The position numbers and the translations under genes were made by a program. From contig JBHLRO010000011.1 of assembly GCA_048882505.1 (NCBI GenBank), forward strand, positions 87,486 through 119,485: 32,000 nt of DNA, in the 5' to 3' direction. Source of the stretch: Candidatus Thorarchaeota archaeon (GTDB lineage: Archaea > Asgardarchaeota > Heimdallarchaeia > Hodarchaeales > Hodarchaeaceae). The notes under the pieces are model-generated. The model was not told the DNA's origin and searched no databases. It was given only the letters and a program-made list of their open reading frames with translations. Shown piece after piece: positions 24,937 through 32,000 of this stretch (position 1 is the stretch's first letter; every line of letters begins with the position of its first letter).

Positions 24937-26871
24937 ATGGTGGCGCATAACGACAAGAAATATTCACACGAAGCATCGCTCGAACAATTAAAGGCTAATT
25001 TGATTAAAGAACTTCCCCCTAATGCTAGCATTAGCCAGGTGGCATTCGAAGGACCATTTGTGGTACTTTACTCGCTGAATCCCACGGTTCTTATGGAAGA
25101 CGGTGATATTGTAAAAAATCTGGCAAAAATATTAAGAAAAAGGATAGTAATACGCTCTGATGTTAGTGTAAGGAGAGAAAAGGAGGAAGCACAGGCTAGG
25201 ATAATGGAAATCGTGCCTGAGAACGCAGAGATCACAAATATTATCTTTGATGATGAACTTGGAGAGGTAATGATTGAAGCAAAGAAACCAGGGGCCGTTA
25301 TTGGGCGTAGCGGTGCCACATTACGAGATATCGGACGTTCGATCTGTTGGCGCCCGAGAGTTGTTCGTTCTCCCCCTATCCAGTCACAACTTATTCAATC
25401 GATCCGTAAAACCCTTACTGCCGAGTCAGAGAAGCGTAAACAGGCGTTGATAAATATTGGAAAACGAATTCATCGACCTCAAATTGCCGGTGATGATTTT
25501 ATCCGAGTTACTGGACTAGGAGGATTTTCTGAAGTCGGACGTTCGTGTATACTTTTAGAAACGGCAGAAACTAGAGTATTGATCGATTGTGGCCTAAATG
25601 TGGGATCGCGTGAACCTTCACAAATGTTTCCATACTTTAATGTTCCTGAATTCGATATTAATGCCATCGACGCTGTTCTCGTAACCCATGGTCATCTTGA
25701 CCATAGTGGGCTCGTACCTTTTCTTTACAAATGGGGGTATCGAGGACCTGTTTACACCAACGATGCCACCCTGTCACTGATGACCCTTCTTCAGAAGGAT
25801 TATATCGAAGTAGCGTCTCGTGAAAACAAACTAGTTCCGTATAGTCAACGAGACATCAAAAAAATGATTATTCATACAATCACAAGGAGATATGGCGAAG
25901 TTACTGACCTCAGTAATGATATTCGCCTTACAATGACCCCTGCAGGTCATATTCTTGGCTCATCAATTATGCACCTTCATATTGGTGATGGCCGTTATAA
26001 TTTGGCCATTGCGAATGATTTCAAGGCTAAATGGTCTCGCCTTCTTGACCGCGCCAACCGAAGGTTCCCTCGTCTTGAAACAATAATTCTGGAATCGACC
26101 TATGGTGGGCCTCGGGATATGATGGCAAGGCGTGATGATGCTGAACTTCTGCTTCTAAAAATCATTAACCAAACCGTAAGGCGCGGGGGAAAGGTTTTGA
26201 TCCCCTGTCTTGCCGTTGGGCGAGTACAGGAGTTTATGACGGTGTTGGCAAAATCTCATCGAAATCGTCAGCTCGTAGATGTTCCAGTGTATCTTGATAG
26301 TTTAATTGCAGAAGCCACCGCGATCCATTCTTGCCATCCCGAATACCTTTCATCTCGCCTCCAAGATCAAATCTTCAACGAGGGGAACAATCCGTTCCTA
26401 AGTGATATTTTCCATCGAGTAGATCGAGCCAATGAGCGACAGGCCCTCGTAAATGGGGAACCCGCTGTGATTCTTGCAACTTCTGGAATGTTGACAGGCG
26501 GAAATTCAGTCGATTACTTCAAAAATATGGCAGATAACCCCCGTAATTCAATTATTTTTGTGTCATCCCAATCAGAAGGCTCTTTAGGGCGAAGAATCCT
26601 TACGGGGGTCAAAGAAATTCGAAGCATCGAAGATGGCAGAATGAATATCCGGCGAGTTAATATGGACGTCCATCAGATCGATGGTTTCAGTGGACACTCG
26701 GATCGAGGCGAAATCATGAATTACGTTCGAGAACTGACCCCTAAACCGGAACGAGTTATACTTTTCCATGGACAGAGAAACAAGTCGCAATCTCTAGCCC
26801 AAGCGCTCACTAAGCGCTATAAAGTAAGAGTGGATGTACCATATAACCTGGAAACACTCCGTCTTGTGTAA
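24937..26871 (+). CDS. aCPSF1 (FttA) KH-domain beta-CASP ribonuclease / transcription termination factor
   Basis: N-terminal KH domains (EGPFVVLY, KRIVIR, KKPGAVIGRSG), LGGFSEVGRS, THGHLDH, AGHILGS, ESTYGG, SGMLTGG, DGFSGHSD and C-terminal NLETLRLV. Confidence 0.95.
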   Translation: MVAHNDKKYSHEASLEQLKANLIKELPPNASISQVAFEGPFVVLYSLNPTVLMEDGDIVKNLAKILRKRIVIRSDVSVRREKEEAQARIMEIVPENAEITNIIFDDELGEVMIEAKKPGAVIGRSGATLRDIGRSICWRPRVVRSPPIQSQLIQSIRKTLTAESEKRKQALINIGKRIHRPQIAGDDFIRVTGLGGFSEVGRSCILLETAETRVLIDCGLNVGSREPSQMFPYFNVPEFDINAIDAVLVTHGHLDHSGLVPFLYKWGYRGPVYTNDATLSLMTLLQKDYIEVASRENKLVPYSQRDIKKMIIHTITRRYGEVTDLSNDIRLTMTPAGHILGSSIMHLHIGDGRYNLAIANDFKAKWSRLLDRANRRFPRLETIILESTYGGPRDMMARRDDAELLLLKIINQTVRRGGKVLIPCLAVGRVQEFMTVLAKSHRNRQLVDVPVYLDSLIAEATAIHSCHPEYLSSRLQDQIFNEGNNPFLSDIFHRVDRANERQALVNGEPAVILATSGMLTGGNSVDYFKNMADNPRNSIIFVSSQSEGSLGRRILTGVKEIRSIEDGRMNIRRVNMDVHQIDGFSGHSDRGEIMNYVRELTPKPERVILFHGQRNKSQSLAQALTKRYKVRVDVPYNLETLRLV

Positions 26872-26892
26872 TACATCAAGGGAAGGAGTCTT

Positions 26893-27372
26893 GTGGCTAA
26901 TAAAAGGGAAATCGGTTCTAAACTTCAAAAATCAATCCTTAAACAAATCTCAGTACCCCCTGTTCCATTAAATCGTGTGATAGAGAGCATACGCTTCGGA
27001 TCAGAGGACGAGACGGGCAGTTTAACGCTGTTGTATAATAAAAGTCATGAGATCAGCTTTTTTAGGTATAAAGACCGATTTTTACCTTCATTAAGATTCA
27101 TTCGGGCGAATCCGCCGATAGATCTTCCCTCTGTCAAGGTGGATCAGGGAGCAGTTCCCCATATTTTAAACGGAGCAGATGTCTTCTGCCAAGGCGTAGA
27201 AAAAATAATTCATGATTTTGATGTAGGGGCAATCATCTTAGTTTTCAATCCACAAGATGCCGTTCTAGCCCTTGGAGAAGCGTTGATAGCCTCCCAGAAA
27301 TTGTTAAATGGAAAGGGAAAAGGCATCAAAACCATTCACTATCTAAACGACCAGATATGGACTGGTAAATGA
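26893..27372 (+). CDS. PUA-domain RNA-binding protein (MCT-1/Tma20-like)
   Basis: FLPSL, VKVDQGAVPHILNGADVF..G, LALGEAL, KGKGIKTIHYLND.IW. GTG start with GGAAGGAG SD. Confidence 0.88.
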   Translation: MANKREIGSKLQKSILKQISVPPVPLNRVIESIRFGSEDETGSLTLLYNKSHEISFFRYKDRFLPSLRFIRANPPIDLPSVKVDQGAVPHILNGADVFCQGVEKIIHDFDVGAIILVFNPQDAVLALGEALIASQKLLNGKGKGIKTIHYLNDQIWTGK

Positions 27373-27463
27373 GGTCTACCTCCCGAATACATCTTTTTTG
27401 GCAAAAAAATTAAAATAGCGTTCCTAAGATTGGGCACCCGCTCTATATAAGGATTAGATAACT

Positions 27464-27859
27464 ATGTCCTACAAGGTTATGAGTGATTACAGGTATCTTC
27501 CCGAACACGACTGGGCAAAATTGGAGGGTGAGCATGTCCTTGTTGGCGTGACCGATTATGCACAAAAAAGTTTAAAGGACGTTGTATACGTTGAATTACC
27601 TTTAATAGGTGATTCTTATGGTTTTAAAGATGTTTTTGGGGCCATAGAAAGCGTTAAAGCGGCCTCTGAGTTGTTTTTGCCAATTGGAGGTGAAATCGTC
27701 GCAGTAAATGACGCAGTAAACGATAATCCAGAGAAAGTAAATGAAGATCCATACGGGACTTGGTTGGTGAAGATTAAACCATCCTCTCTAAACGAGGATT
27801 GGAATAATTTGATGAGTGCAGAGGATTATAAAAAGTATGTCGAAGAACTCGAAGATTAA
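27464..27859 (+). CDS. gcvH: Glycine cleavage system H protein
   Basis: Y...HDW, VGVTDYAQ..L.DVVYVELP, lipoyl-lysine motif IESVKAASE...PIGGEIVAVN, and VNEDPYG.WL. Confidence 0.95.
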   Translation: MSYKVMSDYRYLPEHDWAKLEGEHVLVGVTDYAQKSLKDVVYVELPLIGDSYGFKDVFGAIESVKAASELFLPIGGEIVAVNDAVNDNPEKVNEDPYGTWLVKIKPSSLNEDWNNLMSAEDYKKYVEELED

Positions 27860-27861
27860 AG

Positions 27862-28731
27862 ATGATGAATAAGCTTCGTTCCTATAACGCCGAAAATGTC
27901 GGACTTAAATATGCCCAAGATTCACATCACAAAGACACGGAGCTAGTTTTTGTTGGTCTTGGCTTAGTGGGCTTTAAGAGCTGCTCACTAGAGATTCTTC
28001 AGGTTCTGCAGGCCTCAGATGTTATTTTCCTTGAGGATTATACTAACTTCATTTTGAGGGAAATTCCTCCACCGTTCCAGGATATTACAAAGAAAATAGC
28101 CACCATCACAAGGAAAGAATTGGAAGAAGATGATGAGGAATTTTTTAAAAGAATAAGGGGTTTAAAGGTCGTCCTACTCATACCAGGAGATCCTTTCATC
28201 GCTACCACTCACATTTCTTTAAGAATTTCAGCTGAAGAAAAAGGAATAAATTATCGAATCATTCACAATACGTCAATACTTTCAGCCGCTATTTCCGCAT
28301 CTGGACTCTCACCGTATCGTTTTGGCAGGACAGTAACATGTCCGTTTCCACAGAACCCTAGTGAACATCCCTATAACATTATCAAAGGTAATCAACAGAT
28401 AAAGGCTCATACATTACTTTTGTTGGATATCAATCCGGTTTCAGGCGAATTTGTCTCCATAGATCAAGCATTATCCATGTTAATGGACATGGAACATAAA
28501 AATCAGGAAGGTTTGATAAAGGAAACGAGTTTAGCAATCGGAATAGCTCGTCTTGGTTATAAAGATGTAACCATCGCGGCGGGTACCATACAGCAGCTGA
28601 TTGATCGGGACTGGAACGCTATCGGTCCCCCTCAGTGCGTAATAATCATAGATTCCGAGCTTCATTTTGCTGAAAAACAAACCTTGAAAACCGTTTGGAA
28701 GATTCACGATGATTTAAAACGGGATAAATAA
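27862..28731 (+). CDS. dph5: Diphthine synthase
   Basis: FVGLGL, DVIFLEDYT, PGDPFIATTH..L, IHNTSI.SA, GL..YRFG.TVT, HTLLLLDI, ARLG and GPP...II. Confidence 0.9.
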   Translation: MMNKLRSYNAENVGLKYAQDSHHKDTELVFVGLGLVGFKSCSLEILQVLQASDVIFLEDYTNFILREIPPPFQDITKKIATITRKELEEDDEEFFKRIRGLKVVLLIPGDPFIATTHISLRISAEEKGINYRIIHNTSILSAAISASGLSPYRFGRTVTCPFPQNPSEHPYNIIKGNQQIKAHTLLLLDINPVSGEFVSIDQALSMLMDMEHKNQEGLIKETSLAIGIARLGYKDVTIAAGTIQQLIDRDWNAIGPPQCVIIIDSELHFAEKQTLKTVWKIHDDLKRDK

Positions 28732-29402
28732 TGACAAGCACCTCCAACACGACAGAGCACTTCCATTTACTATTAAAGGACTTTTTGAAAGTAGCGTTTC
28801 TACTTACCCAGTCTCAACAGAGTTTTAACATTGAAGATTTCGCAGGCAAGCTTAGCAGAACCATAGATGAAGCAAAAGCGCTGTTATCTATTCTAATTAG
28901 CCTCAATATGGTTAAACTTGTTGGTAAAGCTAGTGGCAATTATCAGATAACGATTGGAGGTCGAAATAACCTTAGAATAGTAATGACGGGGGGTGCTTTC
29001 GATATCTTGCATCTTGGGCATCTAAAAACATTGCAGGCTGCAAAAAACCATGGTGATCTCTTGTTTGCGGTAGTAGCATCGGATCAAACCGTTGAAAGGA
29101 ACAAGGGAAGACCACCAATGAATAGCCAGAATAACAGAATGGCTCTTCTTTCCCACATTGACATTATTGATAAAGTGGTGGCCGGTGCCTCCGATCCTGA
29201 AAAATTCATTGAAACTGTCCGGCTGATACAGCCCGACGTAATAGCACTTGGCTACGATCAATCACTCTCGGAAGAACGTCTTCTAGAAATGCTTCATGAG
29301 AAAGGGGAGACGAATATCGAAATTATTCGATTGGAGGCAAACGTTCCGGATGAGAAAACATCACTAAAAATGCAATCTATCGATGATCACTCATTTGATT
29401 AA
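28731..29402 (+). CDS. ribL: FAD synthase RibL with N-terminal winged-helix-like extension
   Basis: GGAFDILHLGH (HxGH nucleotidyltransferase), GDLL..VVA.D, KGRPP and PDVIALGYDQ. Shares a TAATG overlap with dph5 and is adjacent to ribK. Confidence 0.82.
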   Translation: MTSTSNTTEHFHLLLKDFLKVAFLLTQSQQSFNIEDFAGKLSRTIDEAKALLSILISLNMVKLVGKASGNYQITIGGRNNLRIVMTGGAFDILHLGHLKTLQAAKNHGDLLFAVVASDQTVERNKGRPPMNSQNNRMALLSHIDIIDKVVAGASDPEKFIETVRLIQPDVIALGYDQSLSEERLLEMLHEKGETNIEIIRLEANVPDEKTSLKMQSIDDHSFD

Positions 29403-29403
29403 T

Positions 29404-30144
29404 CTAAAGATCGAATCGAGGACGAACCGTAACTTCTAGCTCATCACCATCTTGTACTTCATATGTACTTTTAATATGCTCCTCACAGATTAATTCCAGC
29501 TGATCTATGTGATGGGTTCTATCAGGATAGACGATGGCAGCGGGAATTAATTTATCTTGATTTGGTACTATTAAGTAGGCAGGCCAAACAAATGCTTTTC
29601 CAAAAACCCGCCCATTTTCGCTGAATTCCGAGACCAGTTCAGATGGAGCATTTAACAATCGCTTGAAATTCTCTAAATGAGGGTCAGATAAAAGTTGAAG
29701 GTTTAAAGTTCCAGCGTAAGGACGAAAACCGAGTATAGCTTCAAATTGTCGTTGGTATCCCTTCCGGCTCATGTAGTAACTACCGTCACCCATGCCTGTT
29801 ATCACCTTACCCTTAATGCGGATTTCTTCTGGAACCTCACGCCCCTTGCTTGCCAAAACCATCCATAAATCAGAAAAAATCTGATCGAGAAAGGCAGCCC
29901 CTTCGGGAGTGACCCGAATTGAGTTTCCTTGCCGAGTATAGGTTCGAACAATCAGATGTTCATTTTCCATAGAGGTCAACCGTCGTGATGTACTCTGCTG
30001 GGATAGTCCGATCGCCTCTCCTAGTGTTTGTGTTGTGACAACTATAGATCTACGAAGGCCGCCCAATTTCCCCAAGTGGAGGAGGATTGGTAAATAATCG
30101 GAGATAATCTGACTGGTATTGTTTTTCTTCTTTTCCGAAGACAT
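29404..30144 (-). CDS. ribK: CTP-dependent riboflavin kinase with N-terminal wHTH (RibK/RbkR)
   Basis: wHTH (LGEAIGLSQQSTSRRL..ME...LIVR...G..IRVTPEG), then GKVITGMGDG.YY, F.PY.GTLN, P.RTHH, LELI and DGD. ATG 30144 is preferred over 30201. Confidence 0.92.
   Translation of the reverse strand: MSSEKKKNNTSQIISDYLPILLHLGKLGGLRRSIVVTTQTLGEAIGLSQQSTSRRLTSMENEHLIVRTYTRQGNSIRVTPEGAAFLDQIFSDLWMVLASKGREVPEEIRIKGKVITGMGDGSYYMSRKGYQRQFEAILGFRPYAGTLNLQLLSDPHLENFKRLLNAPSELVSEFSENGRVFGKAFVWPAYLIVPNQDKLIPAAIVYPDRTHHIDQLELICEEHIKSTYEVQDGDELEVTVRPRFDL
29789..29964 (-). repeat. Copy A of the ribK 5'-half direct repeat
   Basis: Ungapped hand alignment to 31825-32000 gives 146/176 nt identical. CCCATGCCTGTTAT (29789-29802) is identical at the end where homology stops. 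Confidence 0.95.
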
Positions 30145-30280
30145 TTTGGATGGTTCCAAGGAAGAATTAGCAACCAATATCGATGAGAAGGGCGCAGACA
30201 AACGATGGTACTAGTCCCGTTAACCCCTTTTTTAATTCGGTCGGAGCATCCACAATGTCACACATCGGTGGGGAATTTGG

Positions 30281-31123
30281 TCAATCGGCGTATGACAAAC
30301 GATAATGCCCAGGAGATTCGTCCATTGAGCCGATGAGGAATGTGAGCTCAATGTCCTCGGCATTGATGTGCTGCAAACGCAAGGGTGTGTTGTCCCCAAA
30401 CTCCAGGGTTATACGATCACCTAGCCTGGTATCCAAGATGAGGGTTTTCTTGATATACTCAATAGGGTAGAAATTCCGAGCATGCTGTACCACACCAGAT
30501 GATGCAATGGGGTGGCGGATCGAGATTCCCTCCTGGGTTTCATCCGAAAAGTGGAAGTGGATCTCCTGGGCCTGCCCCTCAAACGTAACAGGGTGAAGTG
30601 GGGCGTAGTAACCAGGGGGGAATATCTCGGTCGGATCCTCAGGAAAGACTTCAGCAAACATACTCATAGTCTGAGTAAAGTCCTTCCTTACGATTTCAGC
30701 AAGGTACGGCAGTTCAAGTTCAACAGGATCGAGCATAATCACGCCATCGGCAATGGTCACGGGGATGTCATGCGAGGCACCTACCCGCATCACCGCTTCT
30801 TTCTGGATTAGTTCAAACAACACGGTTTCTTTCTCTCCCGCCCAAAATCGCACCTCTCGATCTAGTTCCTCAAGTGAAAGTCGGATTTGAGGTATGTTCT
30901 TACCCGACCTGAATGAGTAAAAAAAGGAGGAAGGAAAACGGAGGATTATCAGCATATATCGCCTCTTATCCATCTTTGATACTTGTAAACCTTGGTCGGA
31001 AATGGAGAAGATCACGTCGTCGTCGGGGATGTTTTTCAGTATCTCAATGAGGGTACGGAAGCCCTCCAACTTGTGAGGGGCGATTTCAAAGAGTTTTTCA
31101 GAAGGAGTTGTGTCTCTCACCAT
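30281..31123 (-). CDS. Divergent PCNA-like DNA sliding clamp paralogue
   Basis: FRTLIEILKNIPDDDVIFSISDQGLQVSKMD...LIILRFPSSFF matches the PCNA N-terminal helix/strands. YPIEYIKK...DRITLEFGDNTPLRL...LTFLIG matches the C-terminal pattern. 280 aa; GGAG SD. Confidence 0.75.
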   Translation of the reverse strand: MVRDTTPSEKLFEIAPHKLEGFRTLIEILKNIPDDDVIFSISDQGLQVSKMDKRRYMLIILRFPSSFFYSFRSGKNIPQIRLSLEELDREVRFWAGEKETVLFELIQKEAVMRVGASHDIPVTIADGVIMLDPVELELPYLAEIVRKDFTQTMSMFAEVFPEDPTEIFPPGYYAPLHPVTFEGQAQEIHFHFSDETQEGISIRHPIASSGVVQHARNFYPIEYIKKTLILDTRLGDRITLEFGDNTPLRLQHINAEDIELTFLIGSMDESPGHYRLSYAD

Positions 31124-31355
31124 GAATTACTCCATTTGAGTATTAGTGAATCCTTCCCCCTTATATGACTTGTCGTAATAGAATCCATCCTTAGTACTGG
31201 GAAATCACACAATGGCCGTGTGTCATGCGGTGGTCGTTTAGTTGTTGATCTGTCCAGTGGCTATATTTGGTTTCGGCCTGCGTTAAGACCTGTTCGAGAG
31301 TGATCGCTTGGCCCTTGTATAATTTCGGCCACACGCCATAATTCTGTCTCCCTCT

Positions 31356-31784
31356 ATGCTGGAATTTGGCAATCTTAGCCGCTTCAATTTTCCCCCCGTC
31401 GTCATTCTCCTTGCCCCTCAAATCGGCGAAATTTATAGTACCAGTCCCATTCCCATTCAATGGCAAGCCTCTGATCCAGACCACGACTCCCTAAAATGTT
31501 CACTATTTTACTGGGATGGGGAGGATTGGATATCCATCGTTGCGAATCTTGGTGGCTCGAAATATTTGTGGGATATCCAGGGTGTTCCTAGTGGGCCGTA
31601 TTACCGTATTAGAGTTGTTGTCAGTGACGGGTTCCTCATAGCTATCGACGAATCAAGCAGTCCATTTACAATAGAAAGATCCCAAGGGACTGGCACAGCA
31701 ATCATCTGGGGTTTCCTCGGTATCTTCATAGCAACCCTCTCAAGGATGGTATATGGACTAAATAAACCGAAACTTAAAGGTTGA
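31356..31784 (+). pseudogene. Single Ig-like domain plus C-terminal TM anchor; probable 5'-truncated surface-protein fragment
   Basis: N.PP.V.L..P..GE, W.ASDPD.D.L, W..I...L, Y.WD...VP.G.YYRIRV.VSDG and FTI, then a hydrophobic helix. No signal peptide; in-frame TAA at 31320. Confidence 0.55.
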
Positions 31785-31786
31785 TG

Positions 31787-31797
31787 AAAACAAAAAA
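31787..31797 (-). terminator. U-rich tract TTTTTTGTTTT downstream of the truncated ribK copy
   Basis: 14 nt after the TAA at 31814-31812. Archaeal termination favours U-tracts. Weak evidence on its own. Confidence 0.3.
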
Positions 31798-31811
31798 CCC
31801 CTACATTCTAC

Positions 31812-32000
31812 TTACCCTGGTGCGCCCATGCCTGTTATAACCTTGCCCTTAATGCGAATTTCTTCTGGTGCCTCACGGCCTTTGCTTGCTAAAACCACCC
31901 ATAAATCAGAAAAGATTTGATCCAGGAAGGCGGCCCCTTCAGGAGTAATTCGAATTGAATTCCCCTTCCTCGTATAAGTTCGGACAATTAGATTTCCGTT
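31812..32000 (-). pseudogene. ribK: Truncated second ribK copy (3' part of the wHTH domain to the first kinase motif); 5' end beyond the window
   Basis: Translates NGNLIVRTYTRKGNSIRITPEGAAFLDQIFSDLWVVLASKGREAPEEIRIKGKVITGMGAPG*, with 53/59 aa identical to the full RibK up to GMG. It is not in the ORF track because its start lies outside the window. Confidence 0.9.

Follow-up and report, generated by a model that had tools for sequence, protein, structure and literature searches.

Why does ribK, the gene for a CTP-dependent riboflavin kinase, occur within 2 kb of the same archaeal chromosome once as an intact gene and once as a truncated 5′ half? The question is raised by the right end of the window analysed here, a 32,000-nucleotide (nt) stretch of a Candidatus Thorarchaeota archaeon (contig JBHLRO010000011.1, positions 87,486 to 119,485). 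We label this genome, a 4.3-Mb assembly, G000, so that the window is G000:C11:87486-119485. A sequence-only reading of the window had proposed ribK as a possible integration site, at which an incoming element replaced one half of the gene and left the other half behind. We found that the intact gene (copy A) is a mosaic of a foreign-type 5′ part and a host-type 3′ part, and that the partial copy (stub B) is of host type; between them lies a cargo with a PCNA-like gene and two gene fragments. We think it rather probable that a recent insertion, still variable in the population, produced this mosaic of an essential gene, with a homologous crossover in ribK on one side and an illegitimate join on the other.

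The two copies share a direct repeat of 176 nt, in which 29789-29964 aligned without gaps to 31825-32000 with 146 identical nt (83%), and with 53 of 59 amino acids identical at the protein level. Both copies are in frame on the minus strand, and the two stretches of the repeat start 2,036 nt apart. The differences between them comprise 25 synonymous and 6 non-synonymous changes, corresponding to a dS of 1.15, a dN of 0.046 and a dN/dS of 0.04 (Nei-Gojobori). The homology ends past the I-T-G-M-G codons, and the final 14 nt (CCCATGCCTGTTAT) are the same in both copies. To the left of this end, that is, left of 31825, comparison of A and B showed no similarity and the flanks are unrelated. The 14 identical base pairs are no more than the conserved I-T-G-M-G codons with which the coding alignment ends. 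The repeat, its mostly synonymous differences, its abrupt end after G-M-G and its spacing around a PCNA-like gene and an Ig fragment (open reading frames 30281-31123 and 31356-31784) were thus as the sequence-only reading had described them. Contig C11 (119,485 nt) itself ends at window position 32000, and copy B could not be extended in the assembly: no contig start overlapped the C11 end in a check of contig-end overlaps, and neither the missing 5′ part of copy B nor any other ribK-like sequence was present on any other contig.

Copy A encodes a protein of the RbkR type, in which a putative wHTH (winged helix-turn-helix) domain at the N-terminus precedes the kinase. Its 265-codon open reading frame matched the full PF01982 profile with 108.7 bits (cut-off 25) at residues 133-259, and residues 37-87 gave weak matches to HTH_Crp_2 (23.5 bits) and MarR_2 (20.8 bits), both under the cut-off of 27; precomputed hits to these two families are also present in the orthologue from a relative on a JGI contig. 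The start codon is likely the ATG at 30144, giving 246 amino acids (aa), and this form is on record as a called protein. The motifs TGMGDGSYY and YAGTLN of copy A agree with the CTP-binding motifs of RbkR; in the T. acidophilum protein, taRbkR, the Gly-rich CTP-binding loop is SGMGEGR, and a YxGTLN motif is also found (PMC5397151). The G-M-G at which the homology breaks off belongs to the beginning of this loop. Stub B, a 62-codon frame open at the contig end, matches copy A residues 80-138 and then reads APG-stop, being cut inside the loop (TGMG-APG-stop). Because the break falls in the first part of the glycine loop, stub B would retain the DNA-binding and dimerisation domain and would have no kinase or ligand domain. 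The ribK protein of the closest relative is labelled Candidatus Heimdallarchaeota archaeon at NCBI.

The origin of each ribK segment was read from its identity to the single ribK of a sister species, G016. The 3′ part of copy A (29407-29709) is host-type, with 296 of 303 nt identical to G016 (97.7%), whereas the adjoining offset (29710-29788) has 70 of 81 nt identical (86%), the repeat 81.9%, and the sequence 5′ of the repeat 83%; the contrast between the 3′ part and the repeat is significant (Fisher p = 2e-9). The mismatch density of copy A switches between 29696 and 29722. The same repeat in stub B matches G016 ribK at 173 of 176 nt (98.3%). Maximum-likelihood trees of the two segments disagreed accordingly: for the repeat segment, G016 and stub B formed a clade with supports of 98/98 and copy A fell outside, and for the 3′ segment copy A grouped with G016 (94/90). 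The foreign 5′ part of copy A consists of the 79-nt offset, the repeat, the remaining wHTH and about 137 nt upstream of the ATG; it is roughly equidistant from G016 (82%) and the JGI relative (78%), and upstream of about 30150 the copy A region is not collinear with G016.

These segment identities and trees show that stub B and the 3′ part of copy A together represent the original host gene, and that the 5′ part of copy A came from a third lineage. This supports the earlier claims that copy A joins a foreign 5′ half to a host 3′ half and that copy B is the truncated host 5′ half, and the separate trees that had been suggested for the two halves showed copy A to be phylogenetically incongruent along its length. 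The synonymous bias between the copies had been taken as a sign that both halves were selected as RibK and that neither is a neutral duplicate. The bias is explained by the 5′ part of copy A and stub B being orthologues from different lineages, each under selection, and not decaying duplicates.

An empty site was found in relatives, as the same reading had anticipated. Each of the 40 related genomes searched, 21 of them from the same genus, had one ribK match, and a second, partial match was found in G000 only; an old duplication shared with relatives was not seen. G016 is collinear with window positions 26797-30150 at 91% identity, has one ribK, and contains neither the cargo nor the stub junction. 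In G016, ribK is followed upstream by a TYW2/Trm5-like gene and a PCMT gene, and the same is true of the JGI contig, in which the single ribK adjoins TYW2. Between ribK and TYW2 of G016 we found an intron-containing tRNA-Lys(CUU) (L038:3473-3577, on G016:C42), located 128 nt upstream of ribK, which scored 59 bits with Rfam and was missed by ARAGORN. The G000 counterparts of TYW2 and PCMT are on a 2.7-kb contig, C80, which starts at TYW2 residue 120 and overlaps contig C36 by 77 nt at its end. Given that C80 starts inside TYW2, about 830 nt would be unassembled past 32000, holding the rest of B, the tRNA and the TYW2 start. Stub B thus most likely stands in the ancestral position, judging from this synteny. 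The coordinates of all features are listed in Table 1.

Table 1. Features of the ribK locus in the window, and of the related cassette on contig C2
Feature	Position	Strand	Basis or remark
ribK/rbkR copy A, intact gene: putative wHTH and CTP-dependent riboflavin kinase domain	29404-30201	-	265-codon open reading frame; Pfam
Host-type 3′ part of copy A	29404-29709	-	Identity to G016; tree; shared 12-kb unitig at 33x
Foreign-type (E-type) 5′ part of copy A, including the upstream region that belongs to it	29710-30280	-	Identity to G016; mismatch switch; unitig branch
Repeat copy in A, foreign type	29789-29964	-	A/B alignment
Inserted segment, apparently foreign, 2,115 nt; replaced about 79 nt of host ribK	29710-31824		GC 46.7% against 42% for the window
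Orphan PCNA-like gene, 280 aa; sole intact cargo gene	30281-31123	-	Pfam; PDB profile
PAPS-reductase-like C-terminal fragment, 97 aa	31191-31484	-	Similarity to C2 copies
Ig-like domain fragment with hydrophobic tail	31356-31784	+	Similarity to C2 copy
Stub B, displaced host ribK 5′ half	31812-32000	-	62-codon open reading frame, open at contig end
14 nt identical to 29789-29802	31825-31838		A/B homology edge; putative illegitimate junction at 31824/31825
Repeat copy in B, host type	31825-32000	-	173/176 to G016; tree 98/98
Paralogous cassette splitting the gins-mcm pair	G000:C2:99684-102560 (L055:3685-6561)		PCNA-like gene, PAPS-reductase fragment, Ig fragment

Both junctions of the insert exist in reads. 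They were found in k=31 unitigs of X1, a sediment metagenome run that holds 92% of sampled words. A 12,040-nt unitig of 33.3x covers 28800-29709 and stops at 29709, and the unitig graph branches at 29709/29710, where unitigs of 17.2x go on through 29680-30076 and 30049-31338. The junction between cargo and stub B is spanned by a 378-nt unitig of 18.7x, which covers 31510-31887 with no mismatch, and the last unitig (26.9x) covers 31858-32000 and 112 nt beyond. That depth drops by half at 29709 points to a second allele whose background is otherwise the same, and about half of the population seems to be without the insert; the insert lies in this same genomic background because the 33x of the left unitig is the sum of its branches. 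Depth reached about 88x at 31261-31367, in the multi-copy PAPS-reductase fragment. There is also a stretch of 32 nt, 30047-30078, that is identical in the foreign-type copy A and in host-type (G016) ribK, and at which the X1 unitigs break and depth is raised.

Other runs were consistent with these observations. X3 belongs to another study; one of its pieces spans 29545-29825 at 15 mismatches and is host-type across the junction, another passes from B-type sequence into the 5′-most ribK region, and the pieces are nearly identical in ribL; no cargo depth was seen in this run. The X3 evidence, from low depth and several strains, is supportive only. X2, from the same study as X1, carries a G016-like species with a single ribK, and raw reads of X5, also from that study, gave no match in the 1% sampled.

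The only cargo gene that is intact encodes a PCNA-like protein, which matched Pfam PCNA_N with 23.7 bits (cut-off 20.3). The PCNA-like profile built from this protein and a paralogue on contig C2 matched archaeal PCNA chains in the PDB (E 5e-5, residues 12-271), and the gene appears from these matches to encode a very divergent PCNA. The canonical PCNA of G000 is located on contig C67 and has 23% identity to it. The PCNA-like family was not found in the 40 relatives searched, in which canonical PCNA alone matched at 20-24% identity, and a search of 5.8 billion proteins returned two members, both of this species, namely the insert copy and the C2 paralogue. These two share 69% aa identity with a dN/dS of 0.28. 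The orphan status of this gene and the GC contrast of the insert (Table 1) suggest that the insert is foreign.

The other two cargo features are remnants. The PAPS-reductase-like fragment had no Pfam match, and a longer C2 copy of 151 aa matched PHROG 424 (PAPS reductase) with E 2e-4. Fragments of this family occur in at least six places (window 31191-31484, C56:264-658, C64:265-413, C79:1-138, C2:216370-216527 and C2:101142-101694), several of them at the ends of small contigs, and the assembly has no full-length copy. The Ig-like fragment has 75% protein identity to its C2 copy, which gave weak matches to Big_7 and Kre9_KNH, and is related to a repeat protein on contig C20. No recombinase or integrase family was matched by the open reading frames of 29965-31811 (the PCNA-like gene and the two fragments), as had been expected from sequence inspection, where no integrase was visible. 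No meaningful terminal inverted repeats or tRNA genes were found in or around the insert.

The position of the two breaks in ribK is informative as to how the insert arrived. The foreign tract in copy A ends at about 29696-29710 and the stub ends at the equivalent of 29789, and the intervening 79 nt of host DNA are missing from the locus. Since these 79 nt are lost, the empty allele is ancestral and the insertion is not precisely reversible. Before the insertion, a single RbkR-type ribK would have stood in the order ribL, ribK, tRNA-Lys and TYW2. We infer that linear DNA came in from a related lineage that has not been sampled and whose ribK is about 82% identical, and that on this donor fragment the PCNA-like gene and two gene remnants lay beside the donor ribK promoter and 5′ part, reaching past codon 164. 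One end would have recombined with the host by a homologous crossover inside ribK at about 29696-29710, and the other would have been joined illegitimately to host ribK 79 nt further 5′, within the G-M-G codons (31824/31825). The outcome would be the truncated host 5′ half, the cargo, and a full-length hybrid with foreign 5′ part and host 3′ part; it would have three pieces because the incoming DNA carried its own ribK 5′ part. This outcome could have survived through selection for a working ribK, which would limit recovery to outcomes that keep ribK intact.

The proposal of gene-half replacement at ribK is therefore upheld as far as the hybrid, the stub and the empty site are concerned, but not in its attachment-site form, given a foreign tract that runs 79 nt beyond the core and the lack of an integrase. 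Three integration models were considered. An integrase-mediated crossover at the 14-bp core is not supported, as it cannot produce the foreign tract in copy A, which extends 79 nt past the core at 29789-29802. A Campbell-type single crossover of a circle with a ribK fragment predicts either foreign ribK past the stub or none past the core; both predictions are contradicted, and this model was rejected. An element targeted to the tRNA, of which the cargo would be the edge at the donor tRNA, is not supported, since the foreign upstream region has no tRNA remnant.

Several points count against a single crossover combined with an illegitimate join. The pattern scans for the PCNA-like protein in metagenome, genome and viral contigs, run with the single protein or the two-copy alignment, found no donor or other carrier of the cargo, so that the position of the cargo next to ribK in the donor is an assumption. 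A protein search and metagenome scan with the foreign ribK 5′ part likewise found nothing nearer than host-type proteins, and nothing above 87% in the protein collection. Microhomology at the illegitimate joint is not measurable without the donor sequence. The second allele in X1 was deduced from depth and a graph branch and was not itself read. Furthermore, of the spanning reads that had been called for earlier, unitigs cross both junctions, but the whole layout from A through the cargo to B is joined by the contig of the metagenome-assembled genome only: the k=31 unitigs stop at a short multi-copy repeat (31263-31401), and the linkage of the insert halves therefore relies on the assembler and on matching depth (17-19x) on either side. 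Finally, the C2 cassette, in which the crossover lies at a 15-bp repeat, hints at a more regular process.

This paralogous cassette, of 2.26 kb, splits two genes that are adjacent in relatives of the genus, where gins directly precedes mcm. Its cargo core has 78-84% nt identity to the core of the ribK insert. The order on C2 is gins, a host mcm stub of 9 codons, the cargo, a gins-like 5′ fragment of 64 codons, and a replacement mcm start, and two copies of a 15-bp direct repeat (TTTGACATCAAGGGA) lie 2,259 nt apart. Identity to G016 is uniform from directly past the 15-bp repeat, with no offset visible. The empty mcm site could not be read in G016, in which contig C52 ends (29015, L057) exactly at the 15-bp repeat and gins is unassembled; the mcm site may be variable or occupied in the sister species too. 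Both inserts thus have the same cargo core and the same plan of a host 5′ stub, cargo, and a replacement 5′ end fused to the remainder of the host gene. They differ in that the cassette on C2 targets mcm, has its cargo opposite to the target gene, leaves a stub of 9 codons, and carries the replacement end on the other side; its crossover lies at the 15-bp repeat, past which no foreign patch is detectable. As a separate observation, mcm reads as a frame of 731 codons in G000 but of 1,100-1,750 codons in many relatives (loci L059, L061, L063-L065 and L069), which suggests inteins that G000 is without.

The pair of inserts gives some weight to a mobile cassette without a recombinase, that is, a satellite mobilised in trans as in the sequence-only reading, which would insert site-specifically at short cores in the 5′ parts of essential genes and carry a replacement 5′ end, the 79-nt patch at ribK being due to later recombination or repair. 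The 14 identical bp at both edges of the ribK insert fit such a cassette, as does the mcm locus, where the paralogous core of PCNA-like gene, PAPS-reductase fragment and Ig fragment is flanked by 15-bp repeats, a replacement mcm start and a stub, where identity to G016 is uniform directly past the repeat, and where the G016 contig ends exactly at that repeat. At ribK, however, the foreign tract reaches 79 nt past the core and no foreign ribK sequence follows the stub; the ribK and mcm cores are unlike, the two replacement ends come from different genes and flank the cargo core on opposite sides, and the insert has no integrase or terminal repeats. Nor could precise excision restore host ribK, of which 79 nt are gone. 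We regard this explanation as possible but unlikely. The logic common to both inserts keeps a regular, cassette-like process alive as a minority reading. In its general form, which we put forward tentatively and consider doubtful, both inserts would be products of one process, by which a recombinase-less orphan-PCNA cassette spreads in Hodarchaeales-type Asgard archaea, with the replacement 5′ end of an essential gene as homology arm. Such a cassette would be anchored by dependence on an essential gene and not by a recombinase; it could not be lost together with its arm, since the start of the host gene has been cut off.

The stub, cargo and hybrid might also have been built earlier in another lineage and imported ready-made by two flanking homologous crossovers. 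Homologous exchange between related lineages is evident from the crossover at about 29700, and the allele is variable within a population showing no other difference over 12 kb; both favour such an import. Stub B, on the other hand, is host-type at every informative site to within 14 nt of the junction, the first difference between A and B being at 31839. The left crossover would then have to be located within the final 14 nt of the stub, unless the source was nearly identical to the host type, a case that amounts to the same event one step removed. We consider a ready-made import quite improbable.

A chimeric join of two co-occurring strains or species at the contig end would fit three observations: B lies at the end of a contig, a sister species present in the same study (X2) has 98% identity to B, and a short multi-copy repeat lies between the PCNA-like gene and the Ig fragment. 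Against such an artefact, unitigs of X1 cross both the junction of cargo and B (31510-31887) and the switch from host to foreign sequence (29680-30076), the depths on either side of the repeat agree, the depth of the left unitig equals the sum of the branches, and G016 itself has neither the cargo nor the stub junction. An assembly error is therefore very improbable. Two direct copies 2 kb apart might also point to a tandem duplication in place, in which the ribK 5′ half was doubled and then diverged. This is hardly credible: the copies differ by a dS of 1.15, yet identity to the sister species is 98% for B and 97.7% for the 3′ part of A; B falls with G016 in the trees and the 5′ part of A outside; and the arrangement is shared by no relative and appears variable within the population.

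Copy A is accompanied by ribL (FAD synthetase type) and by genes for a diphthine-synthase-like methylase, gcvH and a PUA protein. ribL (28731-29402, plus strand) has an unassigned N-terminal extension of about 80 residues ahead of its cytidylyltransferase domain (Pfam match at residues 85-192), and ribL and ribK are convergent, with 1 nt between their stop codons.

An annotation should record stub B as a fragment displaced from ribK, not as a further copy of the gene; the stub also poses the question of whether a ligand-blind RbkR DNA-binding domain could disturb flavin regulation. More generally, the locus indicates that a natural hybrid between lineages can serve as an essential housekeeping gene, and that no integrase is needed for the entry of accessory DNA (an extra PCNA-like clamp in this case) when a neighbouring conserved gene acts as anchor. 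In the group of archaea that is nearest to eukaryotes, it exemplifies gene flow from one lineage to another, with a crossover mapped to about 25 nt, an empty site, and an insert that is apparently still segregating. Together with the insert in mcm, it suggests repeated entry into this genome at the 5′ ends of essential genes.

Compared with known systems, the ribK locus is a clear, well-resolved case of recombination-driven gene acquisition in an Asgard archaeon, and is mechanistically ordinary. The nearest parallel to the insertion event is homology-facilitated illegitimate recombination, known from transformation and conjugation in bacteria, in which one junction is homologous and one illegitimate (PMC3240628). 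The ribK locus resembles it in having one crossover within shared homology (~29700) and another junction without flanking homology (31824/31825), with 79 nt of recipient DNA lost and foreign DNA gained. It differs in that the process has been described in bacteria and not in Asgard archaea, and in that the illegitimate join at ribK falls inside the anchor gene, as a result of which part of ribK is duplicated. The Rhs and CdiA C-terminal tips and the effector-immunity arrays of the V. cholerae type VI secretion system (PMC5361080) are similar in that an incoming module recombines through a conserved part and swaps one end of a gene, the old end staying as a non-functional remnant; in those polymorphic toxin loci, however, the variable 3′ end of a toxin is exchanged and diversity is selected, whereas at ribK the 5′ half of a housekeeping kinase and regulator, with its DNA-binding domain and promoter, was replaced, apparently as a by-product of cargo gain. 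Integrative elements such as prophages and archaeal integrated elements, which insert into a gene and carry a replacement gene end at attP, share with the ribK insert a direct repeat of part of the target gene that brackets the insert, a target kept intact by the end that the insert supplies, and an empty site in relatives, but the ribK insert has no integrase, its crossover lies off the repeat edge, it consists of 2.1 kb of cargo only, and its excision would not restore the gene. As for the gene itself, copy A corresponds to the described RbkR proteins (PMC5397151) in its CTP-dependent kinase behind a putative N-terminal wHTH, its CTP-loop and GTLN motifs and its position adjoining ribL; what sets it apart is that no RbkR is known as a natural hybrid between lineages or with a free-standing wHTH stub alongside.

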